This document shows positions 1 through 40,734 of a stretch of DNA of 40,734 nucleotides, one piece after another. The notes beneath the pieces were generated by a model. That model was given only the letters and a program-made list of their open reading frames with translations. It had not been told where the DNA came from and searched no databases. Numbering within the stretch: position 1 is the first letter of the stretch; each line of letters starts with the position of its first letter. The position numbers and the translations under genes are program-made. The stretch comes from a virus (taxonomy: Duplodnaviria > Heunggongvirae > Uroviricota > Caudoviricetes), in IMG/VR virus record IMGVR_UViG_2718217785_000001, one strand, 5' to 3'.

Positions 1-469
<469 letters not shown>

Positions 470-1873: not shown

Positions 1874-2070
1874 TACTGGCTGCGACATTTTTGAATAAAA
1901 GCGTCGACATTTCGGCGCTCATAACGAACTACTTTTGCACTGAAACGAATTGGTGCCAGGATAGCCCGATGACGATGCTTAATATTCCACTCACATAGCG
2001 TTTTCTGTGTAATACCTAACTTTTGGCATACTTCATCCGGGGTGAGTAAATCGTCGGGTTTCTCGCTCAT
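1870..2070 (-). CDS. Small HTH DNA-binding protein, excisionase-like or AlpA-like
   Basis: 66 aa, helix-turn-helix-like segment (LTPDEVCQKLGITQKTLCEW), immediately beside integrase. Confidence 0.55.
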   Translation of the reverse strand: MSEKPDDLLTPDEVCQKLGITQKTLCEWNIKHRHRAILAPIRFSAKVVRYERRNVDAFIQKCRSQY

Positions 2071-3461
2071 GCTATACCTCTCTTTTTCATGGCATCGAGC
2101 AGGATGTCCTGCACTGTTCGTTTTGAGTTGCGCCGCTCCATCACCATTTCGTCCATAGTGTCGGCAGCAATAATGTGGTGAATAAATACCGGACGATTGT
2201 GTCCGGCCTGTATCTGTCTGGTTGGGCCGATACGTTCAATAATTTGCTGATACTGCTCCAGGTCCCACCAATGTGAGAAAAATACCAGTATGTTTCCGCC
2301 GTCCTGCATGTTCAGACCGTGGCCCGCGCTGGCTGGGTGTGCAAAGAGAACAGGAATCTTTCCGGAATTCCAGTCACGTAGTGTCTGTGGATCCTGGTCG
2401 AGGTGACGACCGCGAGGAAATGCTTTAAGCAAGCGTTCAAGATCGTGTTTCCAGTGATAAGCAACCAGCACAGGTGCGCCAGCTGCTTCGGTCAGTATGC
2501 TGTCCAGCGCCTGTAGTTTGGTGTCATGCAGTTCTGACCAACTTCCGGTGTCATCTGTGTATACTGCGCCGCTGGCGATTTGCAGACACTTCAGTGTCTT
2601 TGCCGCGGCGTTTGGTGCTTCGATGCCTTCGCCATTCAGCTCGAGGAACATTTCCTTTTCCATTTCACGATACTGCTGACGGGCCTTCGGCGGCATATCC
2701 ACGCGGATTACGTTATGGATGGGGTCTTTGATATCGAACCAGTCGGTCGCATCCAGCGAGAGGGTCACATCGGCTAACGCTCGCTGTATTTCACCCTGTG
2801 AGTGAGCAAAAGGCTCCAGTTTGGTCCAGCTCTGCCCCGGAAACTGTATCGATTTGAACCAGCGTGAGGTAAACGCGCCGTAAGTGCGCCCGAGACGTTG
2901 CCCCAGGTCCACAAACCACGATTGTCCCCACAAATCTACCAGGCCGTTCGGTGCTGGCGTACCGGTGAGATTTATCCAGCGCCGGACATACTTGTGCGCC
3001 ACTTTGCCCAGCGCCGCCGCGCGCTTACCACCACCTCGCAGCCGGAAGGATTTTAGCCGGGTGCTTTCATCTGGAATGACAGTACCGAACGGCCATCGTT
3101 CTCCCAATTCCTCAACCAGCCAGACAAGGTTATCGTAGTTGATGGTGAACACGCTCGCGTTGTTGTTCGCCAACGCTGCAGAGCGCGCTTTGGCATTACC
3201 AACAATTGATTGTACCTCGATATTGCGCAAATGCCCCCACTTCAGTGCTTCATCCGGCCATGTGCTGGCAGCCACGCGCAGCGGCGCGAGAACCAGCGCA
3301 GGTTGTGTTTCTGCACCCGCCATGAAGAGGTCTTCCAGCGTAGTGAGTGTCGCTACGGTTTTACCCATTCCCATACCCGCCCAGATGTTGCCGCGCAGAA
3401 TGTTAGTTTGGTGATTGATTATGAGGTTTTGATAAATTCTGGGGTGGAATATGCTATTCAT
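2067..3461 (-). CDS. SNF2-family helicase/ATPase (phage replication module)
   Basis: Walker A GMGMGKT, DEST motif II, C-terminal helicase motif ERIGPTRQIQAG. Confidence 0.85.
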   Translation of the reverse strand: MNSIFHPRIYQNLIINHQTNILRGNIWAGMGMGKTVATLTTLEDLFMAGAETQPALVLAPLRVAASTWPDEALKWGHLRNIEVQSIVGNAKARSAALANNNASVFTINYDNLVWLVEELGERWPFGTVIPDESTRLKSFRLRGGGKRAAALGKVAHKYVRRWINLTGTPAPNGLVDLWGQSWFVDLGQRLGRTYGAFTSRWFKSIQFPGQSWTKLEPFAHSQGEIQRALADVTLSLDATDWFDIKDPIHNVIRVDMPPKARQQYREMEKEMFLELNGEGIEAPNAAAKTLKCLQIASGAVYTDDTGSWSELHDTKLQALDSILTEAAGAPVLVAYHWKHDLERLLKAFPRGRHLDQDPQTLRDWNSGKIPVLFAHPASAGHGLNMQDGGNILVFFSHWWDLEQYQQIIERIGPTRQIQAGHNRPVFIHHIIAADTMDEMVMERRNSKRTVQDILLDAMKKRGIA

Positions 3462-3534
3462 TAATACACCTATGGTAGAATATGGTCACTTCTCTCTCTC
3501 TATATATATATATATATAACTAACGGAGGCGGGT

Positions 3535-4332
3535 ATGCCCCTGGCGAAAATATTTACAAAGCAAGTTTCTTTATTAACTATGTTTTCAGCGTTAGCTTAT
3601 GCGATGGCATATTATTTTCAGAAAGGTGTCGCATCGTATTATGGCTATCCAGACCTTTTTATTAAAATAGACTTAAATACGCTATTGTATTCGGCTGTGT
3701 GGCTTTTGTTTTTTAGTTTTTTATTTCTCGGCGCCTTATATGCGGCGTTGATGTTTGATTTGAAAGGAAAATATTATGTTCCATTTATTGTATTTATAGT
3801 TGTTATGCTAATGGCTAATATTTGTATAATAGGATTTCATTGGCCTTTTGGTTATTTCTCCGAAACTTCTGTGATGAGTGTTCAGGATATTTTATTATTT
3901 GCTATGCTTTTGTTGAATTATCACAATGTGGTGTCTATGCCAATCCATAGTAAGAGACACGAACATCATATGGAGAGCATTAGAAAATTTGGGAGGCTTG
4001 CAGAGTATAAGAACGTATTTTATTATATCGATTTAAAAATCCTAAAGTCAGCTTTTCCTTTAGGGGTGATAACGTTGTTGATATTGAGCTATACATTCGG
4101 GAAGGTTACTGCATTTAAAAATAACGAATATTATATGGTAGATGGTAGTAATACTAAAGTGTTGCTCAATTCATTTGGTAGTGGTTTTGTTGTTGGTGAT
4201 TGTGAGTCAAATAGCGCAAAATTTGAATTTGTTAATGATTTAAAAGGGATGAGATTCACAATTATGTCCTCTAAAAAGGAAATAGCTAAATTAAAAGAGT
4301 GTTTCGAAATACGTGTTAAAAATACGGATTAA
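3535..4332 (+). CDS. Low-GC moron encoding integral membrane protein (about 4 N-terminal TM helices plus C-terminal soluble domain), unknown function
   Basis: 265 aa ORF, strongly AT-rich codon usage, opposite strand to flanking replication genes, RBS GGAGG at 3525-3529, hydrophobic N-terminal segments. Confidence 0.6.
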   Translation: MPLAKIFTKQVSLLTMFSALAYAMAYYFQKGVASYYGYPDLFIKIDLNTLLYSAVWLLFFSFLFLGALYAALMFDLKGKYYVPFIVFIVVMLMANICIIGFHWPFGYFSETSVMSVQDILLFAMLLLNYHNVVSMPIHSKRHEHHMESIRKFGRLAEYKNVFYYIDLKILKSAFPLGVITLLILSYTFGKVTAFKNNEYYMVDGSNTKVLLNSFGSGFVVGDCESNSAKFEFVNDLKGMRFTIMSSKKEIAKLKECFEIRVKNTD

Positions 4333-4344
4333 AGCATAAGTCTT

Positions 4345-4632
4345 TTATCCTTTATTGCGGCTTAAAATAATGGCTTCCAGATTTTTGCTATCCAGCACCA
4401 CTACGGTAAAGCCCAGCGCGCGCAACCGTCCGTGTTCGCGCAACTGGTCAGGCCGTGGTGGCTTGCCGGGGGATTTACATTCAACGAAAATGATACGACC
4501 GCCGGGTAGCAGAACAATGCGATCTGGTACCGAGCGGCGACCGGGGGATACGAACTTAAAGGCAACCCCGCCAGCCTTTTTTACTTCAGCGACGAGGTGC
4601 TTTTCGATTAGGTTTTCACGTTCATAGGCCAT
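4345..4632 (-). CDS. VRR-NUC domain nuclease
   Basis: 95 aa with PD-(D/E)xK-like D...ECK motif (PDRIVLL...IIFVECKSPG) typical of VRR-NUC. Confidence 0.75.
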   Translation of the reverse strand: MAYERENLIEKHLVAEVKKAGGVAFKFVSPGRRSVPDRIVLLPGGRIIFVECKSPGKPPRPDQLREHGRLRALGFTVVVLDSKNLEAIILSRNKG

Positions 4633-4826
4633 TAGCTTTCGCCTTCCTGCTTTTTGCGTTTCTTCATGCAGATAGCGCAGTTCTCAGGATGGTCATGCCA
4701 TTCATCAATCCTGATACCTATGAACATCCATTTTCCGCATAGTGATATGGCTTCCCCCGAATTAAAGAAATGTGCTTTTTTTGACAGAGCGGGGAACCCC
4801 CAACCCTTATTATCGATATTAGACAT
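4632..4826 (-). CDS. Small Cys/His-containing hypothetical protein
   Basis: 64 aa ORF tightly coupled to the VRR-NUC gene; contains C-x12-H-x-H-x3-C-x2-C pattern; no family recognised. Confidence 0.4.
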   Translation of the reverse strand: MSNIDNKGWGFPALSKKAHFFNSGEAISLCGKWMFIGIRIDEWHDHPENCAICMKKRKKQEGES

Positions 4827-4862
4827 CGTCCACCTCCTTACGCTTTTCGCGCATGTTCTGCA

Positions 4863-4997
4863 TCAGACAAAAATCAAACCGACGTTCGCTTTGGCCCAGA
4901 CCTGCATCGCCCGGTCGTACCCGCCGGACTGTTCAAGGTGCAAAGCCTCCCGCACAGTCCGGTAATAAAGCGGACTGTCCCGGTATTTAAATGACAT
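4863..4997 (-). CDS. Possible 44 aa small ORF (MSFKYRDSPLYYRTVREALHLEQSGGYDRAMQVWAKANVGLIFV), unknown function
   Basis: ATG-initiated ORF in otherwise noncoding gap, found by manual translation; below the ORF-track length cutoff. Confidence 0.25.
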   Translation of the reverse strand: MSFKYRDSPLYYRTVREALHLEQSGGYDRAMQVWAKANVGLIFV

Positions 4998-5011
4998 AGG
5001 GTTTTTATTCC

Positions 5012-5038
5012 CAAATAAAAAACCCCGCGATGCAGGGT
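5012..5038 (-). terminator. Intrinsic terminator downstream of the TIR-like gene
   Basis: Minus-strand hairpin CCCTGC-ATC-GCGGGG followed by TTTTTTATTT. Confidence 0.5.
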
Positions 5039-5060
5039 TGTAATCAACAATAAGGGGTAA

Positions 5061-5822
5061 TTACGAGGAAGCGTTAGCTATTTGAGCTTGTGTAAATTCG
5101 AAACCAGAATTTTGTAACCGTTGCACTAGACGAGGAACTGTTTCACGTACATGGTCGTTGAAATTCAGATACAAAATCCCGTTAGCATCAGAAGGCTGTT
5201 CTAGGTGCTGTTTCTGAAGGATTGCTACATTGCTGCGCCCTAAGGACGAAAGAAGCATACCCATCTCGAGTACAACGTTCTGTCTTGCGCGGGGTTGGAT
5301 TTCTGCTTCACCGGCGCGCTTTGAGTATCCCATATCATCAGGTGTCAAAAGAACAATCCCGAAACGGGTAGCAGTTTGTCCTTGCCCAATTTCACGTTCA
5401 AGCTCTTCAATAATGGTGAGTCCAGTCCCTCCCGTATTCTGCAAAATGAAATGGTCTGGTAATCCAAGTTTATGAAGGATTAGCTCAAGTTGCTCCTTTG
5501 CAGTATGGTCATGGCCGTGAACAATGAATATCTTTTTGGGGAGCTCAGATGGCTGTTCTACGGCTAGTGGTGTTGCCGTGGGCGGCGTTCCTAAATGGGT
5601 CATTATTGCAGTTTCAACATTGGGACGTTCTTGAGGGTTACCTTGAAACTGAATGGTCCGGGTGGTGTAAAGGTTAACAATTACGCCATTCGTTAAACGA
5701 TAGCAGTCACAAGTCTCACGCTGTTCGTGGGAAAAATTGGTGAACCCACACTCCCCCAAAAAGTCAGGAAAAGATTCTCTCGGGTATGGATAGGTGATCG
5801 GCATTTCAGTTAGTTCCTGCAT
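5061..5822 (-). CDS. Protein with C-terminal TIR-like (COG4271-type) nucleotide-binding domain and unassigned N-terminal domain; candidate defence or abortive-infection effector
   Basis: 253 aa; C-terminal motifs KIFIVHGHD, VLLTPDD, RARQNVVLEMG resemble TIR-like/SLOG-type domains from memory; GC lower than flanking pol gene; own terminator. Confidence 0.5.
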   Translation of the reverse strand: MQELTEMPITYPYPRESFPDFLGECGFTNFSHEQRETCDCYRLTNGVIVNLYTTRTIQFQGNPQERPNVETAIMTHLGTPPTATPLAVEQPSELPKKIFIVHGHDHTAKEQLELILHKLGLPDHFILQNTGGTGLTIIEELEREIGQGQTATRFGIVLLTPDDMGYSKRAGEAEIQPRARQNVVLEMGMLLSSLGRSNVAILQKQHLEQPSDANGILYLNFNDHVRETVPRLVQRLQNSGFEFTQAQIANASS

Positions 5823-5886
5823 AAGTATTGTTCCTTTAATTTACTCGAATTCAGCATGTCGCCATAGCTCGATAAGGTGAGTTATA

Positions 5887-7950
5887 TCAATCTTTTTTGT
5901 AGTGGTACGCCTCAAAACCGCCAGCGTTCAGTGGGATATCGGGCGCCCATTCGGGGTCAGTGGAGAGAAGCGCGGAAAGCGCTTTATCGTTGAAATCTTC
6001 TGTGTCAGGTGCTTCGGTGATCACCTCGTCGTGTACCGTCAGCACAATGCTGTAACCGGCATCTTCGATAAGCGGCATGTTTCCGGCCAGAATGTCGCGG
6101 GCGGCCGCCTGGGTGATGTTCTCCACCAGCTTTCCGCCGTAGGTTTTGAGTCGTTGCCATTTACGCGAATAAGAGTTAACCCCCATGTAGGTGATATTCC
6201 CTTTTTCGATAACCGGAGACGGGTAGCATACAGCGCGTCCTGATGGTAGCTGTATGCGCAGCCACGCGCCATCGCGGCGGATTTTAAGATAACCGCAATA
6301 CAATGTTTTTTGCGGTGTGGCGATTGCAGTGCGGACGGTGCGCTCCAGTTCGTACCAGAAATCACAGGTCGCGGGATGCGCCCGGCGCCAGAGACGTTTA
6401 AGTGAGTCGCAGGCGATAAATACCCGTTCAGAAAGCCCGTAGGTTGACTTGCGTTTAACCGATTCGTCGTACCAGCTTTTCGCCTCGTGGATAACATCGC
6501 GGGGAATGTTTGGTAGTGCGGCGTTCGCCAGCTCGTCGAGATCGAGACCGTAAACCAGTGCAAAAGTGATGAAGGCCGACACACCACCACCATAACCCAG
6601 ACCGAGTTCCATGACTTTACCGATCTGACGCATGTGTTTATCAACATCATCTGGTGCAATATCGAAAGCTTTTGCATACGCCAGTTTATATAAGTCCGGA
6701 CCCGTTCCGGCGTCGTACTCTCTGAATGCATTCAGTTTCCATTCTTCTCCCGCCAGCCATGCCAGCATACGGCCTTCAATGTTCGACAAGTCACTTACCA
6801 CCAGCTTTTTGCCTGTTGGCGCGATAATGCAGCCACGTAACGCTGAACTGGTTAGTTCCATGATATTGTCAAACAGCAGGTCTGCACATCCGGCTTTCAG
6901 TGCTTCGATGCCTTCGTCTATTTGTTCCTGTTTTAGTGAAGGGCGGGGAAGGTTCTGGGGCTGGAATAGCCGTCCGGCCCAACGACCGGTACGTGACGCC
7001 CCGCAGAACTGTAGCGTACCGCGTAAGCGCCCGTCGTGGCTTACGCCTTTCATCAGTGCCTTGTATTTACTGGTGCTGGTAGTACTGGCCTGCAGGCGGA
7101 TAGCCAGCAGTTCTTTCACGGCAGATGGTAAATCGGGGTCGGCAATACGACGTTCCAGAGTACTGCGTTGCATGTCTGGTAGCTCCACACCGTAGGATTC
7201 AACAATGTGCTTAATCAACGCGTCTCGTTGTGTGGCTGCCTGCACTTCGCCATCAGTCATTTCCTGTGTACGCTTTGCCAGGCGCTTTTGTTCCTGGTCT
7301 ACCGCGTCGATCGCAGCGCGTGCGAGTTCCACGTCCATGCAGACGCCCCGGTCATTGATCTGCTGATCACGATGCCAGAGCGTCAGTTCTGTCCCCTGAT
7401 AATTCCACTTCGGCAGACGTTTATAGACTTCGCGCATTGCCTCGATATCCAGTCCGGCGTAAGCAACAAAGCGCCGCCATTCTTCCGGGTGGGTTTTGCT
7501 GGTGGCACGGCGCAGTTTGCTGTTTTTCGGGCGGGGCTTACAGAACAGCTGGATCAGCGCTTTACCTTCTTTGTCCTTCGCTTTGTCTTGCGGGACGCCT
7601 AGTACTTCGCAGAGTTCCCCCAGAGACCCCGGGAGACCGTGCGCCAGCGCCTGCACCATTGTGTCGCGCCAACGTTCGACTGGCGGTGCCAGGCGCGGCA
7701 TTGCATAACGCAGGACGGTGCGGTCGAAGTGAGAGTTATGGAAATAAAGCAGGGTTTCAGGGTCTGCGATTGCTTCGTATAAGCCGTGTGGAATACCACC
7801 ACCGGCAGTGATATCCCACACGTTTACGGGCCCGTCGTTGATAGCCCATGCGAACAGCATCACTTCAACGCCTTCGGCATACGCATGGGTACCGTTCGTA
7901 ATAGGGATTTCGCAATAGGTTTCTAGGTCACCCCATAGTATATTGGACAT
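5887..7950 (-). CDS. Family A DNA polymerase with 3'-5' exonuclease domain
   Basis: 687 aa; exo motif GDLETY, pol motif [17 protein letters not shown], motif [17 protein letters not shown], motif C VHDEV. Confidence 0.9.
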
Positions 7951-8006
7951 AAAATAACCTTGTGTGATATATGGTTATGTAGGCGTAAATAAACAAGGAG
8001 ACGGCG

Positions 8007-8276
8007 GTGTTTAGCTTTGGTATCGGAATACTTTCATTGATAGGTATTATTGCTTTCCCCATTCTTTATATTTTAGGGAGAATAGTTCGGGCTGGTGGCG
8101 CATGGCTCGAACGTGAAGAAGGTCCTAAGGATCGTGTTCTTCCCAAAATTATAATTTTTGCGCTTATTGGGTTCTTTCTTGGGTGTTTGGCTCAGCCTGT
8201 ATGGGACAGCATTTCGGCATGTAGAGACTATGGCAATCCAATAGGGAAATGTCTTTTTAAATTCAATGAATTTTAA
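8007..8276 (+). CDS. Low-GC moron encoding small membrane protein (2 TM), GTG start
   Basis: 89 aa, GTG start with RBS AAGGAG at 7995-8000, opposite strand to replication genes, AT-rich, hydrophobic segments. Confidence 0.5.
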   Translation: MFSFGIGILSLIGIIAFPILYILGRIVRAGGAWLEREEGPKDRVLPKIIIFALIGFFLGCLAQPVWDSISACRDYGNPIGKCLFKFNEF

Positions 8277-8343
8277 TTTTTAGTATTGCGGTAGGCTGGT
8301 TTGGATAACTATTTTCTTAAGCCAGCCTTTGTTATAAGAAATA

Positions 8344-8982
8344 TTAAGCATCTACCCCTTCGTCAGAAGGGAGGCCGATCATTTCGTTGAGAGTTTCGCG
8401 TCGTATAGCTGGCGGAAGCGGAGCAGATGGTGCATCGGCTGGCAGAAGTTCTTTAGCTTCAGGCCACTCTTCCAGCAGGCGCTTAACTGTGCGCACTTTA
8501 CTGAGTGCAGCGCTGACATTCTGTCGAATGTCTGACTCATCGCTCTGTATCTGCTCATAAAGTGCATCAAACCCGTAAAACTCTGTAACTAGAGGGTCAT
8601 TTGCCAGAAGGGTAAATTCCCCCGGCGCGATTTTGTGAATATGGTCTGGTGACCCTGATTCATATCCTCGATAGTTACCGTTGAAATAGACGGTAACCCG
8701 AGAACCTGCCAGATTCAGACACATGTAACACTCTTTCCTGATAATATTATTGGCGGTTTTTAATGCTTCGGGGAATTTTGATACCAGTGTTTCTATTTTT
8801 TTTATAATTTTTAATATTTCAGCTTCTTTCTCTACGCCCCCGATAGCTGCAAGCCGAACACGTTCGGCCCATTCAACACGAGCAGCTCGTAGTGCTGATT
8901 TACGTTTGGGGATACCCGCTTTCTCAAGTGCGTTATTGATGATTTGAGTTTTAAGGTGATTAGTTAATACGGGCTGTGACAT
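8344..8982 (-). CDS. Hypothetical phage protein (replication module); ORF could start 15 nt upstream at 8997
   Basis: ORF with RBS GAGGGAAAG ahead of internal ATG (MSQPVL); no family recognised. Confidence 0.55.
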   Translation of the reverse strand: MSQPVLTNHLKTQIINNALEKAGIPKRKSALRAARVEWAERVRLAAIGGVEKEAEILKIIKKIETLVSKFPEALKTANNIIRKECYMCLNLAGSRVTVYFNGNYRGYESGSPDHIHKIAPGEFTLLANDPLVTEFYGFDALYEQIQSDESDIRQNVSAALSKVRTVKRLLEEWPEAKELLPADAPSAPLPPAIRRETLNEMIGLPSDEGVDA

Positions 8983-9034
8983 TATTCTTTCCCTCATGAG
9001 ATACCCCCAGCACGTAGCTGGGGGATGAATATTT

Positions 9035-9583
9035 TTAAATTAGTGCTTCAGCATCAGCACCTTCGCTGATATCGTCGAAATCGTCAGCGCTTGCCACTCC
9101 GCCGCCAGCGAATGCATCGCCGTCTCGCAGGAACTGGACTCCGCCGAGTGAGGCATTAATGCGTTTACCGAAATTATTGTCCTGTGCCCAGATATCGATA
9201 ACGGCGTTTACATAGCACCCTGCATAGGGACGTCCGTCAGCCTGAATAAGTGGCGAACGATCGCGATCAAGAACAGCTGGGCGCGCTTTGTTAGCAGCAT
9301 TCAGGAAGAAATTACCGGGGAAGCCTTCATACTCTGCTTTTTCATCACCATCATGCAGGCACAGATTGAGTTTTTTCTCCAGCTGGTTATAAATGGGCTC
9401 CCACTTCTCTCCCCATTTTTCCTTCGCTACCTGCTTCATAGCTTTACGGATTTCTTCCAGTTGTGGGTGTTTGGGTGACATTAAAAATACTGCGGAGAAA
9501 CGTGGATCGCCTTCGCCGTTTACAGTTTTAGCTTCAAACAGAGACGGGAAGGCCAGACGAACATTGTTCAGCTTCAGTTTCAT
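9035..9583 (-). CDS. DUF2815-like phage protein (putative ssDNA-binding)
   Basis: 182 aa, N-terminal MKLKLNNVRLAFP and acidic C-terminal tail typical of DUF2815 proteins that accompany Pol A in this module type. Confidence 0.65.
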   Translation of the reverse strand: MKLKLNNVRLAFPSLFEAKTVNGEGDPRFSAVFLMSPKHPQLEEIRKAMKQVAKEKWGEKWEPIYNQLEKKLNLCLHDGDEKAEYEGFPGNFFLNAANKARPAVLDRDRSPLIQADGRPYAGCYVNAVIDIWAQDNNFGKRINASLGGVQFLRDGDAFAGGGVASADDFDDISEGADAEALI

Positions 9584-9598
9584 GGGTATTTCCTTAAA

Positions 9599-10900
9599 TC
9601 AGATGAGGTCTGCGGTTAGCGTATCGTCGGATACGTCGTCGAAATCATTTATAGGGTTGATATTGAGTGCGGGGCGTGGGTCTGACTCGGGAACGACGGT
9701 GGGTTTACCATCAGCTCGTGTTATCAGTGCCTCGACTTTTGACCAACGGCGCGGACTGGCCTTTTTGATAAGTTTTTCGGCTTTTGTGGGGCTAATAAGT
9801 TTAAAGTCGAATACTTCTTCAGTTTTGTACCTGAACTGGTCCTTCAGAAGTGCGCGAGCTGCCTCTTCATCACTCCAGGCCCGGTTACCTTGTTTTCCTG
9901 TTACCAGTTTAAACCCCGGTACCGGATGTCCGGCATTGAGTTCATTGTGAACCCGGTCTCGTACTGCCTTTAGCCAGGATTCAATAAAGTCGGCCTGGCT
10001 ATAGATCTCCGCAAGCTGCTCAATGGTTAACAGAGGTACACGTGCGCTGGCATTGGTGATTATTTCGCTGACAGGCTTTGTCAGATCTTCAAAATCGCTG
10101 GCCGCTGTTTGTAAATGCTGCATTTTCTGGGCAGTGCAAATAGCTTTTGCTTTACAGAAGCGGCACTGTTTTTCTCCAGGTATGAAGTTTTCCAGCGGTA
10201 GTGTCTCAATGCCTTCGCATTCAGCAATATTGAGAACAAGGATCGCACTGGTTGCGGCCTCCTGTGCCCGTTCACCGAAAGACTGAAGTTCCTGTACGGT
10301 TAACGACCATTCTGAAACGTGGTTGAGCCTTGGCTGGTGAATAAATAATCTTACAGTCTCAAAGTCATACAGCATGCTGAATTGTTCGAGTGCACCCAGG
10401 GCATACAGTTGTAGTTGCTCATTTTGTTCTGCATCAATGCGGACGCCTTTGCCATATTTCAGGTCGTGGATTTGTAATTCGTTACCAGCGATGATTATGC
10501 CGTCGGCAGTTCCGAAAGATTCTTCCACACCCGTTATATGTGAGAAATCAACACGTTGTTCAACCAATAGTTCATTATTCTGTGCAAGAGTCCAGACCGT
10601 ATCAACATACCGGCCAACGGCTTCGACCATTTCATCATCCACCTGTGGGCCAGATGTATCATCAGGATTTTCGCGAAGGGGGTATGAGCCGAGAAACATA
10701 GAAACATTGCATCCGGCGTAGTGTTCCGGGTGGCTTTGCCTGTTTCGTAGAACTTTTTCAGCAAGCGCGTGCGCTGCAGTGCCCTCGATTGCAAAAGTTG
10801 TTTCTTTATCCGGTTGTGTGGCCTCCAGCGCCAGACTTCCTGGGCAGCGCATCCATCGATGCGCTGATGATGGAGAAAGTTGTGCGTGAACGTCTGGCAT
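9599..10900 (-). CDS. DUF2800 / Cas4-like PD-(D/E)xK nuclease with Fe-S Cys cluster
   Basis: 433 aa; N-terminal Cys (RWMRCPGS), D-x-K motif [10 protein letters not shown]-terminal C-x2-C-x5-C ([13 protein letters not shown]). Confidence 0.75.
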
Positions 10901-10902
10901 GA

Positions 10903-11805
10903 TTAACCCTCCAGTGCTTTTTCAGCCAGGGTGATTACTTCAGCGAGATTTTCATCCGTTACTTCACCAAGTTTCCTGGCTCCCTGTTTTTCCAGAATTG
11001 CAATAGCTTCTGCCCGGTAGCCCCCTTTTGCTAACTGGAGGATCAACCCTTCAGCTTGTTTGCGTAGTGCCGCGAAATCAATTGTATGGTCATCTTTGGC
11101 GTCATGATTCTGGCTGGAATTTGCTGCGTCTCTGCGTGCAAATTCTTCCTGCAGCTGAAGGTACTCAACACGGTTGATCTCGATATGGCCTTTTTTAAGC
11201 ATCTCGTTCAACTTGCGTAAGGTGTGGAGTTCACTGGCTGCTGTGCCGGATACATTTTTGACGTAAAACGGCCCCGTGCGTTCTCCATCTTTGTCACTGG
11301 CCTTTTTCGGCTTAACTTCATCACGCCCATCTGCAGGTGCATCAAGTAGCTGCTCGGCAAAAGCGCGTCGCTCGCCGATGGTTGGCAGGTCGTCCCAGAA
11401 CTTAAGAATGTTACGGGACAGGTCCAGGAGAGCAGGTTTAAGCAGCGCCCTGGCTCGTTTGACGCCCTGCAATGCGCTGTCGAGAGCATCAATCTGAACT
11501 ACTCGTTTATCGCCTTCAGCATCACGGTAGGCAACAGCACGTTGCAGCATATCTTCTGTGATAGGGGTGGCTACCGGGTAGAAACCAGCCAGTGCGATAA
11601 CGTCGCTGAACTCCAGATCATCCAGTGTCATTGCCGCTGACATATTTTCAGTTTCAGTTGCTGTATCCCGACATTCCTGCACTCGTGAAATTGTGTCAGG
11701 ATGCATAACAATACCTGATGCCATTGTGCGGATAAGACGTTCAAGCAGCGCATTATGTTGTGCCAGAAGTTGATTATTAAGTTCTAGACTGGTTTCTAAA
11801 CTCAT
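10903..11805 (-). CDS. Hypothetical phage protein
   Basis: 300 aa ORF translationally coupled to neighbours in the leftward early operon. Confidence 0.55.
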
Positions 11806-16928: not shown

Positions 16929-17270
16929 ATGGCTCTGATCAGCGTTCGCAACAGATTTGAAAGCTTCATGGAACAGAGGTACCCAGACCTGTCGTTGCAG
17001 GTCAAGGGTAATATTGGCGCATCAATGAAGGCTCAACTTGGCATCAGGATTGAACGAGAATTGTACAGTGAAGATGTTACTTACTGTGATTCAGCAGTTC
17101 AGTTGATGTGGACACTCTTTCAGGCAGGTGTTCTGGCCGAACGAAGAGCTACCAGCGTTACGCTTCCTGCGCTGAAGGCAAAGCCGGATAGCTTCTACGA
17201 TGCGGGTTATAACGAAGGTATTCAGGACTGTCGTAAACATCTGACGGCATCAGGCATCAAGGTAAGATAA
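16929..17270 (+). CDS. Hypothetical protein
   Basis: 113 aa ORF between Q and late leader; followed by strong terminator. Confidence 0.5.
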   Translation: MALISVRNRFESFMEQRYPDLSLQVKGNIGASMKAQLGIRIERELYSEDVTYCDSAVQLMWTLFQAGVLAERRATSVTLPALKAKPDSFYDAGYNEGIQDCRKHLTASGIKVR

Positions 17271-37042: not shown

Positions 37043-37705
37043 ATGCATCGTATAGACACGAAAACCGCGCAGAAGGATAAGTTCGGCGCGGGTAAGAACG
37101 GTTTTACCCGTGGTAACCCCCAGACCGGCACGCCTGCCACCGATCTGGATGATGACTACTTTGACATGTTGCAGGAGGAGCTTTGCAGCGTTGTGGAGGC
37201 ATCCGGTGCCAGCCTGGAGAAGGGGCGGCATGACCAGCTGCTTACCGCGCTTCGTGCGCTGCTGTTAAGCCGCAAGAATCCGTTTGGCGATATCAAATCG
37301 GATGGCACGGTGAAAACAGCTCTCGAAAACCTTGGTTTGGGAGAAGCGGCGAAACGAAATGTGGGAACAGGGGAAAATCAGATACCGGACATGGCCTCTT
37401 TTGCCAGTGGTGATGGATGGATGAAATTACCCAACGGGAAAATCCTGCAATATGGTCGTGGGCGTGTGTCTCCTACGCTTGCGAGTCAGACACTACGGGT
37501 AGAATTTAATATACCTTTCCCTAAAAAAGCTGATATTGCCTTGCTTTCACATTCTGGTGATGGTGGTTCAACTGCCGGGAGTGGTCGTGGTTTTATGATG
37601 ACAACTGAAGAGCCAGGGTTAACAGGGTTTTATTCTGCCTTTAGAACAACCTCGACAAGTCCAACTGTTACCATGAATTACTGTTGGTGGGCTGTTGGCG
37701 AGTAA
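37043..37705 (+). CDS. Tail fibre protein: constant N-terminus (res 1-104) fused to variable C-terminus inside invertible segment
   Basis: 220 aa; N-terminus [21 protein letters not shown] typical of e14/Mu-type fibres; crossover site within LGLGEAAK coding region. Confidence 0.75.
37320..37350. other. Left crossover site of invertible segment (hix/gix-like)
   Basis: TTGGTTTGGGAGAAGCGGC at 37332-37350 is the exact reverse complement of 38917-38935; imperfect palindromic half-sites AAACC/GGTTT. Confidence 0.65.
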
Positions 37706-37725
37706 TTTTATTCAGGGTGATTTAT

Positions 37726-38169
37726 ATGAACAAATATGTTTATAGTGCCAGACATAATGCTTTTTTCCCTGTGGATATGATTGATAAATATAAATCAGAG
37801 GGATGGGATTTATCAGATGTGAAAGAAGTGAATCAAAATATTGTCAGTGAGTTTATGGCTGAACCGCCACAAGGAAAAGTCCGTATTGCCGGAGATGATG
37901 CGCTGCCTGCGTGGGCTGATATTCCTCCACCCACGCATGAAGAGCTTATTGAAATTACTGAATCAGAAAGACAGCTACTAATTAACCAGGCCAACGAATA
38001 CATGAACAGTAAACAATGGCCCGGTAAAGCCGCTATTGGTCGTCTGAAAGGTGACGAACTGGCGCAATATAATTTGTGGCTGGATTATCTGGACGCACTG
38101 GAACTGGTTGATACTTCCGGTGCGCCAGATATTGAATGGCCTACGCCTCCGGCTGTTCAGGCCAGATGA
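37726..38169 (+). CDS. Tail fibre assembly protein (Tfa), active orientation
   Basis: Conserved Tfa core (LPAWADIPPPTHEE), directly after fibre gene. Confidence 0.7.
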   Translation: MNKYVYSARHNAFFPVDMIDKYKSEGWDLSDVKEVNQNIVSEFMAEPPQGKVRIAGDDALPAWADIPPPTHEELIEITESERQLLINQANEYMNSKQWPGKAAIGRLKGDELAQYNLWLDYLDALELVDTSGAPDIEWPTPPAVQAR

Positions 38170-38557
38170 CATCAGGGGCCGTTGACGTATCGACGGCTTT
38201 CACCGCTTTTTTATGCGCCATCCACTCAGACAATTTCGCTTTATCCTCGTCACTTATATCGCCGAGCATTAATTCAACCCGCCAGTCGGCGGTTACTTCG
38301 TCAATCTGCTGTAGCCGTTGCTGGCGATATTGTTCTGCCGCCGCTATTTGCTCTTCATGCGTTGGAGGCGGCGCATCGACCCAAGCGGGCAGTCCAGTGC
38401 TATCTGCACCAAGCATTTTACCTTCAGGCCAGGCAATACCAGCAAATTGGTTGTAGAGGTTAACACTGATTTCAATAGCTGATTCAGGAATAAACCTGCT
38501 TTCAGGTTCAATATAAAATCCGTTATCAACGGCGTCATAAAAGTATCTTGTTTTCAT
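38141..38557 (-). CDS. Tail fibre assembly protein (Tfa), alternative cassette
   Basis: Same Tfa core (LPAWVDAPPPTHEEQ) on the opposite strand, convergent with the first. Confidence 0.7.
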   Translation of the reverse strand: MKTRYFYDAVDNGFYIEPESRFIPESAIEISVNLYNQFAGIAWPEGKMLGADSTGLPAWVDAPPPTHEEQIAAAEQYRQQRLQQIDEVTADWRVELMLGDISDEDKAKLSEWMAHKKAVKAVDTSTAPDVIWPEQPEA

Positions 38558-38558
38558 G

Positions 38559-38935
38559 TTAATAACCTATTGCGAATAAACAACCGGCAGCTGAAGCACC
38601 CGCCCATGAAGTCCCATTAGTTGTTCTTAAAACACGAACTTTGACTGTCGTTCTGGTAGAGCCACCAATATCGAAGCCCCACGTTGTGCCGGCCGATCCA
38701 TTCCACGAGCTAGCAGAAGCACCTGAGTCAATCGCAGTGGCATGAAACAGAGCGTTAGGAAATGCCATAGGTAATGTCACGGTTGCTACTCCAGTCGAAT
38801 CGGAAAGAAATCCAGAGACCCACTGGAAAATGATATTTTGTTCAACCCCACCAATTAAAGCCGGGATCAATATTCTCCCGGTATTACCCGTTACCCCTAC
38901 AGCAGCGCCAAGTTTTGCCGCTTCTCCCAAACCAA
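38559..38935 (-). CDS. Alternative tail fibre C-terminal cassette (silent in present orientation)
   Basis: Minus-strand ORF sharing GLGEAAK junction with the + strand fibre, lacks its own constant N-terminus. Confidence 0.65.
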
Positions 38936-38947
38936 CGTTTATGAAAA
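38917..38947. other. Right crossover site of invertible segment (TTCTCCCAAACCAACGTTTATGAAAA)
   Basis: 26 bp hix-like imperfect palindrome; inverted copy of left site. Confidence 0.65.
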
Positions 38948-39001
38948 TGCAGAAATAACGAGCAAATGGCATCATTCCTGCTTTTGTCAGGGAGATCTAC
39001 C

Positions 39002-39316
39002 ATGCTTATTGGCTATGTACGTGTGTCAACAAATGACCAGAACACCGATCTGCAACGTAATGCACTGAACTGCGCGGGATGTGAGCGGATTTTTGAGGAT
39101 ACAATCAGTGGCACTAAGTCCGACAGACCAGGGCTGAAAAAACTGCTCAGGACATTATCGGCAGGTGACACTCTGGTTGTCTGGAAGCTGGATCGGCTGG
39201 GGCGCAGTATGCGGCATCTTGTCGTGCTGGTGGAGGAGTTGCGCGAACAAGGTGTTAACTTTAGTAGTTATGTTATTACAGGTGGGGGATTTCTCCCCCT
39301 TATGCAGATTTTCTAG
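39002..39316 (+). pseudogene. pin: Pin/Gin/Hin-family serine DNA invertase, truncated after about residue 85
   Basis: N-terminus MLIGYVRVSTNDQNTDLQRNAL...TLVVWKLDRLGRS matches Pin-type resolvase domain; homology stops near 39262 and ORF ends in unrelated low-GC sequence. Confidence 0.7.
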
Positions 39317-39320
39317 TTAA

Positions 39321-40166
39321 CTATTGGCGAAGTGGCCATATTTTTCTGTTTTTTAAAAAACTATCTCCAACTATATAACTGCAACAATGTTCACTAAGGC
39401 CATAAAAACTAATTATTCCATATTTATGAGAAGCTATATCAGACAGTTCTGCTAATACTGTGGCAAGCCAACGAGCGATGCTAAGAGAATAGAATCTTCC
39501 CCATTTTTGAACAATGGTATTTTGTCCAGTACGGATGGAGGCTGATATAAGGTCTTGCATCATGTTGGTACTTTCATTCATATACATGATCGTTGTATAC
39601 GGCGAAAGAGTGGCATTGATAAACCTAGCATTTTCTTCAACACGTCTTTGTTCAACTGTATAATAATAATGTTTTTCAAGGATACTCTCGGCTACTTCTC
39701 CCCACCATTTATTAATAGGTTCATTATTGGTTAAATTGGGGCTGCTTAATGAAGAGAAATTTGCGTAACGTCCCCGTCGGGCATCAGCAAAGGAATCTAA
39801 ACATTCAAGTATTTTGTAGGTGATTTTATGTGTAGGACGTGAATATCTCAGAGATAGTTGCATTTTTTTAGAAATACTATCAACCTCGTTGGTTAATTCA
39901 ATGAGCTTATGTCCAAATTTTCTTACAATATTCTCGTCAGGCATTTTTCCTTTATGTTCAATGGCATAGTGTGCAACAAGTATTAGTTTAGCAAGTCTCT
40001 CAAAACCTACAGAAAGCCCAAAAAATGCAGTGTAATACTCACCTATTTTGTCTGCATAATTGGCTTTACCTATGGCTGTTGCCCCAGAACCAATGAGCTG
40101 TGTAACTAAAGATGCTTCTCGGCCCAGAGCGTGCCATGCTGGAATATCCCAGGGATTTTTATTCAC
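39321..40166 (-). CDS. Low-GC cargo gene, unknown function, at the invertase-distal hotspot; candidate defence gene
   Basis: 281 aa ORF, AT-rich, occupies the position where e14 carries mcrA; no recognised motifs. Confidence 0.6.
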   Translation of the reverse strand: MNKNPWDIPAWHALGREASLVTQLIGSGATAIGKANYADKIGEYYTAFFGLSVGFERLAKLILVAHYAIEHKGKMPDENIVRKFGHKLIELTNEVDSISKKMQLSLRYSRPTHKITYKILECLDSFADARRGRYANFSSLSSPNLTNNEPINKWWGEVAESILEKHYYYTVEQRRVEENARFINATLSPYTTIMYMNESTNMMQDLISASIRTGQNTIVQKWGRFYSLSIARWLATVLAELSDIASHKYGIISFYGLSEHCCSYIVGDSFLKNRKIWPLRQ

Positions 40167-40293
40167 TTTATTATTTTCCTTTGCTCATAAATTTAAATTG
40201 TTTGAGTATCTCATAAAATATAAGGAGGTGGTTAAGGTTGTTGATCGCATATAATAGCTATTGAAAGTCAAGAACTCGGTTTTATGTTCTACC

Positions 40294-40334
40294 ACTAATT
40301 AATATATTGTGAATCTTACAATATATTAATTAGT
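40294..40334. repeat. Perfect 17 bp inverted repeat with 7 bp spacer (ACTAATTAATATATTGT ... ACAATATATTAATTAGT)
   Basis: Read directly from sequence in the gap between the two cargo ORFs. Confidence 0.65.
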
Positions 40335-40467
40335 ATGATCAAACCAGCCATCAACTGATTCCTTGTATCTTTCAGAGTCTCCAGAATAAAAGCCTTAACG
40401 AATTCCTTATTTGTGAGTGCCTTACAAAAAGCCCATTGTTGCAGGGAACGAGTATAAAACTCGTCAG

Positions 40468-40734
40468 CTACTGGAGAAGGCTACCTGAACTTCGATCTAT
40501 TCCTGCATCCATATAGTTGATGGTCTTCTGGAGCTCTTCGATTAGGGCAACAGCTTTTGCTCGAGAAATGCATATTAGGTGATCCGGAAATTCTTGTAAG
40601 GGCCAGTTTGGTATACAGGCCATGTTATCAGTGAAGGATGCAGACAAGTAAACTTCATTGGTAACCAGAGAATAGCTTACCTCAAAATTGGTGAGCTCCG
40701 GCAAACTGCTAACGTTTGACTCTTTTCTGCGCAT
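40468..40734 (-). CDS. Hypothetical cargo protein; start at window edge, may extend beyond
   Basis: 88 aa minus-strand ORF ending at 40468, low GC, upstream of the 281 aa cargo gene on the same strand. Confidence 0.4.
   Translation of the reverse strand: MRRKESNVSSLPELTNFEVSYSLVTNEVYLSASFTDNMACIPNWPLQEFPDHLICISRAKAVALIEELQKTINYMDAGIDRSSGSLLQ

Follow-up and report, generated by a model that had tools for sequence, protein, structure and literature searches.

A probable HEPN-like protein at the right end of an Escherichia coli prophage as candidate for a widespread defence family

Introduction

Towards the right end of a prophage of Escherichia coli the gene of a pin-type DNA invertase has lost its 3' half, and a short segment of low-GC DNA stands in its place. 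This raises the question what the incoming segment encodes, and whether it could serve as a defence against other phages. We addressed this question in silico for the virus record IMGVR_UViG_2718217785_000001 (Caudoviricetes), a stretch of 40,734 nucleotides which is called the window in the following and which is identical to positions 3779633-3820366 of E. coli strain C11 (NZ_CP010133.1). The segment is a cassette with one gene, and the product of this gene, 281 amino acids long, belongs to a family that is widespread, unnamed and undescribed in the libraries and the literature searched. We incline, if only slightly, to the reading that the gene is a prophage moron for a new HEPN-like nuclease that acts alone in abortive infection, an interpretation drawn by analogy to known systems. 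Gene and cassette are located as follows.

39321..40166, minus strand: gene of the 281-residue protein (WP_073488341.1, probably HEPN-like), the sole gene of the cassette, with a GTG start; identified from the list of open reading frames (ORFs), the annotation and homologues
39269..40452, strand not applicable: low-GC cargo cassette of about 1.19 kb with 36% GC; the right border is set where homology to prophages with other cargo resumes

The 281-residue protein and its family

Neither Pfam (at E <= 1), NCBIfam, PHROGs and PADLOC nor the sequences of the PDB yielded a match to the 281-residue protein, and literature searches found no paper on its family. Relatives are numerous: 485 close ones of the same length share 55-74% identity and range from Enterobacteria to Alphaproteobacteria (Methylocella), and homologues of equal length occur across phyla at 45-74% identity. 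At 50% identity and E <= 0.001 the family comprises 940 clusters, nearly all of single-domain proteins of about 275 residues. The 53 species-level loci that were compared belong to Proteobacteria, Mycobacterium, Nitrospinota, Chloroflexota, Fibrobacterota, Binatota and Gemmatimonadota. Residues E17, E56, R57, K60, H86, R133, Y134, W154 and R232 are invariant in all 46 divergent members that were aligned, and position 82 is Lys or Arg in 44 of them. With a pI of 9.15 the protein is basic, and it lacks transmembrane segments.

The gene is present in 44 of the 5426 complete E. coli genomes, always on the chromosome, and its full-length ORF is intact in all 44 carriers at 98-100% identity. Judged by its sequence it is a real gene under selection. 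One could regard the frame as a decaying remnant, or as a chance frame in AT-rich junk that remained after pin was destroyed by an illegitimate recombination, and the loss of pin together with the identical junctions in the carriers does suggest a single accident. With an intact frame in every carrier, homologues of the same length across phyla and invariant residues this explanation is effectively refuted, and we give it hardly any credence.

A distant branch of the family resides on about 136 plasmids from E. coli, Klebsiella and Salmonella, most of which (116) are conjugative. Its members are annotated as a “hypothetical protein” of 273 residues (e.g. locus L078, 3968-4789, on the IncX1/X3 plasmid pE001, NC_019067.1), are 33% identical to the prophage protein over residues 17-154, and retain E17, E56/R57/K60, H86, R133/Y134 and W154. 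A resolvase gene and the dqlB type I toxin are found near the plasmid homologue. Three GenBank records named “Escherichia phage vB_EcoM-...” (ON470579.1, our locus L079, ON470588.1 and ON470593.1) carry the 281-residue gene together with the host genes tadA, yfhB and yfhH; we rejected them as evidence of induced virions, since their host flanks mark them as prophage predictions. Readings of the protein as an HD-domain protein, a Fic protein or a metalloprotease were likewise discarded, because the respective motifs are absent from the alignment and the sole HD_4 match came from one member (E 0.009).

Genomic neighborhood of the family

When the neighboring genes were clustered across the 53 species-level loci, one recurrent set of partners emerged. 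Nine loci have the family gene embedded in a type I restriction-modification (R-M) operon, flanked by hsdS and hsdR, in the same orientation as these and with gaps of -15 to +19 nt (Nitratireductor, Bradyrhizobium, Mesorhizobium, Acidocella, Aurantiacibacter, Novosphingobium, Erythrobacter, Qipengyuania and a metagenome-assembled genome of Rariloculaceae). Both Pfam and PADLOC confirmed HsdR and HsdS as the direct neighbors. The gene order of these relatives, hsdM-hsdS-(x)-gene-hsdR, places them inside an hsdMSR operon in the manner of PrrC, which does not apply to the E. coli copy. Three of the R-M operons hold a further unannotated gene of 204-230 residues between hsdS and the family gene (locus L034, 5299-5991; L065, 5368-5982; L076, 5368-5982). 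These genes have no match in Pfam and may represent a second embedded accessory gene.

Other members are found in a variety of mobile and defence-related surroundings. The gene directly follows hsdR in Enterobacter ludwigii, in an integrase-bounded island which also holds Vsr, HNH and DUF4917 genes, and in Pectobacterium it directly follows the genes of an OLD-TOPRIM ATPase and a UvrD helicase, a Gabija-like pair. It adjoins an AbiJ-like gene in Marinobacter, and in Klebsiella variicola a lambdoid prophage has it at its end, close to umuDC. A P2-like prophage of Morganella carries it between the tail-fibre assembly and sheath genes, which we take to be the Z/fun position of P2. In a P2-like prophage of Serratia marcescens a 73% identical relative sits between gpA and the portal gene gpQ, beside a PvuII-type R-M system; the gpA-gpQ interval of P2 is a known defence hotspot (old/tin; Rousset et al., PMC9122126). 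As no conserved small partner gene was found across the 53 loci, the family is a self-contained single-gene module; it is mobile and has a strong tendency towards defence contexts.

The prophage in the window contains a second gene of interest, encoding a TIR-domain protein of 253 residues (5061..5822, minus strand; Pfam CAP12-PCTIR_TIR), which matches the PADLOC single-gene defence candidate PDC-S35 over its full length (E 2e-108). Homologues of PDC-S35 (47% and 37% identical) directly adjoin the family gene on the same strand in the R-M operons of Acidocella (L049) and Mesorhizobium (L036). Both genes occur together in 27 E. coli genomes, while 17 have only the 281-residue gene and ten only the TIR gene. 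These 17 and ten genomes led us to reject an obligate partnership; the link may reflect the prophage lineage or a shared status as defence cargo.

Fold and candidate active site

AlphaFold2 modelled the 281-residue protein with good confidence (pLDDT 83.6, pTM 0.85) as an all-helical chain. The fold relatives listed for it include YutE, AF0298 (2hsb), TT1696, the HEPN domain of sacsin, Csm6 and MNT-associated HEPN toxins, and also AbiV (9bj5), AbiA's C-terminal domain, HepS (9oik) and MtlR, with generic helical membrane bundles scattered among them. Foldseek searches of the PDB and BFVD gave no match. With three matches among 150 family representatives (E 0.0022-0.1), HEPN_AbiV was the only Pfam family matched by more than two of them, which supports the fold independently from the sequence side; ten further family proteins were scanned, and the HEPN_AbiV-matching relative was not among these.

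In many HEPN families helix 2 bears a conserved acidic residue as part of an Ex3[KR] motif; the Rx4-6H motif is located where helix 3 ends and the loop to helix 4 begins (PMC3710099). Deviant motifs are known in AbiV, HEPN-T and Parep1, and domains of the AbiV and AF0298 type pair the motif's basic residue with an alternative conserved His located in the insert that follows helix 2 (PMC3710099). In the 281-residue protein the Ex3[KR] motif is found as E56-R-L-A-K60 within the predicted helix 43-70, invariant in all 46 divergent members. Instead of Rx4-6H the alignment shows [K/R]82-x3-H86, with a basic residue in 44 and the His in all of the 46 members, and the invariant R133 without a following His. 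The pair of a His and a basic residue could be formed by [K/R]82-x3-H86 at a helix-loop-helix junction or by H86 and R133 at the end of helix 114-127.

We consider E56-x3-K60 in helix 2, [K/R]82-x3-H86 and R133-Y134 as the candidate active site. The N-terminal 170 residues or so, which are also the part kept in the plasmid branch, would then form an HEPN-like bundle of the AbiV / HEPN-T type, with a tentative assignment of helices to the core, while the C-terminal stretch of about 110 residues appears to be family-specific and might act as a sensor or regulator. By analogy to HEPN ribonucleases the protein may be a metal-independent endoribonuclease.

An HEPN-like fold does not have to be a nuclease, as the non-catalytic repressor MtlR illustrates, and the protein might be an RNA- or protein-binding regulator or an accessory factor, for instance one with an influence on type I R-M activity through restriction alleviation or control. 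We regard this as unlikely. The nine invariant residues are mostly polar or charged and comprise the Ex3K pair, a His and three Arg, a set that resembles an active site; furthermore, the gene is also found alone in prophage hotspots and in lone insertions without an R-M system nearby, which would not be expected of an R-M-specific regulator.

Proposed function

As a single-protein abortive-infection ribonuclease the soluble, basic and all-helical protein would work in a manner similar to AbiV, HepS and the nuclease part of PrrC. The nuclease would be latent in the lysogen until a signal from an infecting phage switches its activity on. It would then cut host tRNA or rRNA, so that translation stops and the lysogen population and the prophage are protected. 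The catalytic centre would be built from H86 with K/R82 and/or R133, plus E56/K60, and control and sensing could be exerted by the C-terminal region or, in R-M operons, by the HsdMS(R) complex. Where relatives are flanked by hsdS and hsdR, restraint of the nuclease may come from the type I R-M complex, as it does from EcoprrI for PrrC.

Several observations weigh against this proposal. Among the 46 members no conserved His is found four to six residues after a conserved Arg, the spacing from position 82 to H86 is x3, and residue 82 is as often Lys as Arg. The best-conserved motif, GRYANF, falls into a loop modelled with low confidence (residues 129-146, pLDDT < 50). When the PDB sequences were searched with a profile, no HEPN protein came up; the 281-residue protein escapes the PADLOC models, those for AbiV and AbiJ included, and it has no evident antitoxin or immunity partner. 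In Acidibrevibacterium and many others the gene is a lone insertion with housekeeping genes around it, and the R-M-embedded cases stem mostly from Alphaproteobacteria and may reflect few evolutionary events. Because the canonical motif is missing and the evidence from the fold is moderate, membership in the HEPN superfamily is probable but not settled.

The cassette and its upstream region

A sequence-only reading of the window had placed the end of the invertase homology near position 39262 and the beginning of AT-rich DNA right after it. Both statements hold, with the break at 39268, 6 nt away, and a GC content of 0.361 (39263-40452) compared to 0.512 in the rest of the prophage and 0.549 in its structural genes. 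What is left of the invertase gene is listed here.

39002..39268, plus strand: truncated pin invertase, PinE residues 1-89; from Pfam, the alignment with PinE, DNA homology and the RefSeq annotation

The ORF as a whole (39002-39316) matches only the Resolvase N-terminal domain of Pfam (residues 3-89, E 1e-30) and is 82% identical to PinE of K-12 up to residue 89 and unrelated beyond. DNA homology to the full-length pinE of a related prophage stops at about 39268, and RefSeq annotates 39002-39268 as a pseudogene without C-terminus. The remnant keeps the N-terminus of the catalytic domain; the remainder of this domain and the DNA-binding C-terminus are gone, and the resident invertase is dead. 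In each carrier that was examined, the 281-residue gene occupies this end of the prophage and the junction to the truncated pin is identical. The cassette is a foreign segment, a moron cassette at the right prophage end, and contains a single gene, encoded on the opposite strand from pin and accompanied by an upstream region of its own. Two potential structures of the nucleic acid accompany the gene.

39284..39299, minus strand: GC hairpin GGGGGA-GAAA-UCCCCC, 22 nt past the stop codon of the 281-residue gene; from its fold energy
40294..40334, strand not applicable: perfect inverted repeat of 17 bp, ACTAATTAATATATTGT / ACAATATATTAATTAGT, the arms being 7 nt apart; it lies 128-168 nt upstream of the 281-residue gene

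The hairpin (-14.6 kcal/mol, z = -2.1) lacks a U-tract and was not called by the terminator scan; it may be a terminator or an RNA-stabilising element. The palindrome is more striking with a fold z of -4.9 and none of 200 shuffles equally stable. It overlaps promoter-like hexamers and may act as an operator or form an RNA hairpin. Promoter-like sites around it are no commoner than by chance, and in the island as a whole the promoter and terminator scans did not rise above chance either. The palindrome upstream of the E. coli gene is not a family-wide feature.

The upstream region and the small ORF that lies further upstream on the same strand bear on a different explanation, in which the protein is the toxin of a toxin-antitoxin pair that mainly stabilises the prophage and does not primarily exclude other phages, with either the product of this small ORF (92 residues) or an RNA from the palindrome region as antitoxin, as with abiV2-abiV1, a type III pair. 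The requirement of AbiV for an upstream hairpin RNA lends it some appeal. We nevertheless think it quite improbable: the 92-residue ORF occurs with other cargo and is missing from all other contexts of the family, the family gene starts as little as 9-15 nt past hsdS and 86 nt past hsdR (Enterobacter), which leaves no room for a conserved upstream RNA, and no small neighbor is conserved in the 53 loci.

The second ORF and the right end of the prophage

According to the sequence-only reading, the 281-residue gene and a further ORF lie on one strand and might form an operon that reaches beyond the window. The two ORFs exist and share a strand, which is the minus strand; the operon is wrong, as attR and then the host gene follow directly to the right.

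40468..40746, minus strand: small conserved phage gene of 92 residues (88 residues from the ATG at 40734); PHROG 17793, E 2e-44

This ORF does not begin a longer gene; it is a small, complete one (88 or 92 residues), whose reading frame ends 12 nt beyond the window and which is the first gene inside attR. Neither of the two proteins had been credited with recognisable motifs. This agrees with our searches of Pfam, NCBIfam and PADLOC, and has to be amended for the small protein in view of its PHROG match. Homologues are known from the Salmonella phage SEN34 and from Stenotrophomonas and Yersinia phages. Irrespective of the cargo, 121 E. coli genomes possess the complete right segment from about 40453 to attR, the 92-residue ORF included. 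The ORF is part of the prophage backbone and lies outside the cassette, and the neighbor clustering of the 53 loci did not return it as a conserved partner of the family. An operon or a toxin-antitoxin pairing of the two genes was rejected, the small ORF being backbone and unlinked to the family elsewhere.

The prophage is of myovirus type, about 41 kb long, and inserted in the 5' end of yfhL. Its gene order is yfhL, integrase, early region, lysis, head, contractile tail and tail fibres, followed by the cargo region.

214..231, strand not applicable: attL core TTCACACATATCACAATT, the left end of the prophage; the 18-mer recurs at the other end

The same 18-bp core is found at 17041-17058 of locus L001, corresponding to 40940-40957 in window numbering, just outside the window. 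The sequence from this right-hand 18-mer onward is shared by all 5426 complete E. coli genomes, with yfhH of the host as the next gene. The window ends about 206 nt before attR and with it the end of the prophage. The cargo region is located inside the prophage, about 490 bp from the att core.

The cargo slot in related prophages

Prophages of the strains 99E2750, EH2252 and F11 occupy the same att site in yfhL and have a full-length pinE, an unrelated gene of 215 residues on the minus strand and the shared right end. The slot of the IAI1 prophage holds the 215-residue gene and an acyltransferase, with no pin annotated there; in the 2014C-3061 prophage it holds the 215-residue gene and a serine acetyltransferase, with the remnant of a helix-turn-helix gene at the position of pin. 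Altogether the 215-residue gene was found in five of five prophages sampled with other cargo. In phage SEN34 the order is integrase, attP, the homologue of the small ORF, an O-acetyltransferase and tail fibre genes. The slot from pin to attR is variable and accepts the 281-residue gene, the 215-residue gene and acyltransferases; unrelated cargo lies between the same anchors, namely the pin/tail-fibre module and the 92-residue gene, in related elements, as is characteristic of a moron slot. One recombination event exchanged the 3' half of pin and the usual 215-residue cargo gene for the 1.19-kb low-GC segment, so that the replacement of the invertase half by an AT-rich island, as first read from the sequence, is confirmed and extends to a second gene. 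We know of no systematic survey of this slot.

The 215-residue protein (WP_001288820 and variants; locus L004, 5310-5957, minus strand) is a second uncharacterised gene of the slot, and had no match in Pfam, NCBIfam, PHROGs and PADLOC.

In e14 of K-12 the genes are arranged as ymfR ... ymfQ, stfP, tfaP, tfaE, stfE, pinE, mcrA, end of e14. The order stfE-pinE-mcrA-end of e14 bears out the early suggestion that the cassette occupies the position of mcrA. The further suggestion of a plausible anti-phage hotspot gains support from the variability of the slot and from relatives of the 281-residue gene in recognised defence hotspots and R-M operons. The mcrA gene of e14 is the sole experimentally established defence cargo among those compared at this slot.

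The same variability could be read differently. If the hotspots are merely permissive sites, the gene might be a moron that serves the host in ways other than defence, for instance through stress tolerance, an altered surface or a trait related to virulence. The O-antigen-type acyltransferases in the slots of IAI1, 2014C-3061 and SEN34 fit well with this idea, and so do the many members among housekeeping genes and the fact that no defence database recognises the 281-residue protein. We judge it to be improbable, as the fold and the conserved residues hint at nucleic-acid chemistry and a non-defence role would leave unexplained the recurrent tight same-strand placement in R-M operons and the neighborhood of Gabija-like, PvuII R-M, AbiJ-like and TIR genes.

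Further features of the prophage

Upstream of the truncated pin lies the DNA on which an invertase of this type acts.

37327..38940, strand not applicable: invertible tail-fibre segment with pix-like crossover sites at 37327-37355 and 38912-38940

The pix-like sites form an intact 29-nt inverted repeat (93% complementary), with opposed tail-fibre and assembly ORFs between them, and the segment holds alternative ends of the tail-fibre and assembly genes. Since the prophage's own invertase is truncated, inversion of this segment would need a Pin-family invertase in trans. Three further places of the C11 chromosome match part of a query made from positions 38900-40734 and are possibly pin paralogues.

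At the left end, yfhL (1..261) is still a full ORF of 86 residues at attL, and its protein accession differs from that of K-12. Evidently the phage supplies a replacement N-terminus and upstream region for this gene (window 1..261 and 214..231; locus L001, 17041-17143). The early region (about 2067..11805) encodes a family-A-type DNA polymerase, DUF2800 and DUF2815 proteins, a VRR-NUC nuclease, a DEAD/DEAH helicase with weak PADLOC similarity to the DpdE and ZorD helicases, and a protein annotated as “Nmad5 family putative nucleotide modification protein”. A role of this module in the modification of phage DNA is possible.

Significance

The 281-residue gene is a well-supported candidate for a widespread and undetected defence family within a well-populated class of systems, and it can be tested cheaply. 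A far-reaching joint claim would be that of a new and very broad family of single-gene abortive-infection RNases with a non-canonical HEPN-like core (Ex3K, [K/R]x3H, R133) and a C-terminal sensor of its own, which acts as a PrrC-like R-M guardian in many bacteria, was captured repeatedly by prophage hotspots (P2 gpA-gpQ, P2 tail fibre-sheath, e14-type pin-attR) and by IncX plasmids, and possibly cooperates with PDC-S35 TIR proteins. In this full form the claim is tentative and more likely wrong than right.

If the defence function predicted for the 281-residue protein holds, PADLOC 2.0, Pfam and NCBIfam would have missed entirely a defence family of about 940 clusters (50% identity) in at least seven phyla, which spans prophages, genomic islands and, with its distant branch, about 136 IncX-type conjugative plasmids of Enterobacteria. 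Type I R-M operons would have a second and much smaller type of nuclease guardian beside PrrC, and the protein would offer a compact model for the silencing and triggering of an HEPN fold whose catalytic motif is deviant. In e14-like and SEN34-like tail modules, the pin-to-attR slot is a usable anchor for mining further prophage cargo.

Comparison with known systems

Membership of the 281-residue protein in AbiV, PrrC or McrA is not supported, and the likeness to each of them is partial. AbiV (PF18728, PDB 9bj5) is a metal-independent HEPN RNase which in lactococci uses R91/H97 and needs the upstream non-coding abiV2 RNA with its small hairpin. It has about 200 residues compared to 281 and the extra conserved C-terminal region here, and its R91/H97 and abiV2 RNA contrast with [K/R]x3H and the lack of a family-wide conserved upstream RNA. 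The window protein has no match to PF18728 at E <= 1 and none in PADLOC. The two-component layout of AbiV is not found either: the region upstream of the family gene is unconserved, and in R-M operons the gene follows hsdS at 9-15 nt.

PrrC is embedded in the EcoprrI type I R-M locus as a guardian that fires upon inhibition of R-M (PMC12707154), and its nuclease domain is of the HEPN type (PMC3710099). Nine of the 53 family loci resemble this type Ic locus in that a type I R-M operon encloses the gene, between hsdS and hsdR and in the same orientation. In contrast to PrrC, the 281-residue protein has no ABC-ATPase N-terminal domain and no detectable sequence similarity, and the E. coli copy adjoins no R-M system. 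An ATPase-HEPN fusion as in PrrC/RloC was not found; the protein is a single all-helical chain of 281 residues without an ATPase domain in Pfam or NCBIfam.

HepS of the Salmonella prophage Gifsy-1 (PDB 9oik) is a prophage-borne single-protein HEPN anticodon nuclease, triggered by the siphovirus tail-tip protein J. It differs from the 281-residue protein in size and motif and has no sequence similarity to it.

With respect to position, the closest counterpart is McrA of e14, whose slot and module order (stf-tfa-pin-[cargo]-prophage end) are those found here. Both genes are AT-rich cargo with a defence role, established for McrA and putative for the 281-residue protein. McrA is an HNH type IV restriction enzyme acting on modified DNA, whereas the 281-residue protein is unrelated, and Pfam, NCBIfam and PADLOC found no HNH or other nuclease domain in it; in addition, the insertion described here removed half of pin. 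A similar arrangement is known from P2 old/tin and other prophage hotspots (Rousset et al. 2022), where variable cargo likewise lies between conserved anchors of temperate phages. The anchors are different ones in the present case, namely the pin/tail-fibre module on one side and the 92-residue gene next to attR on the other.

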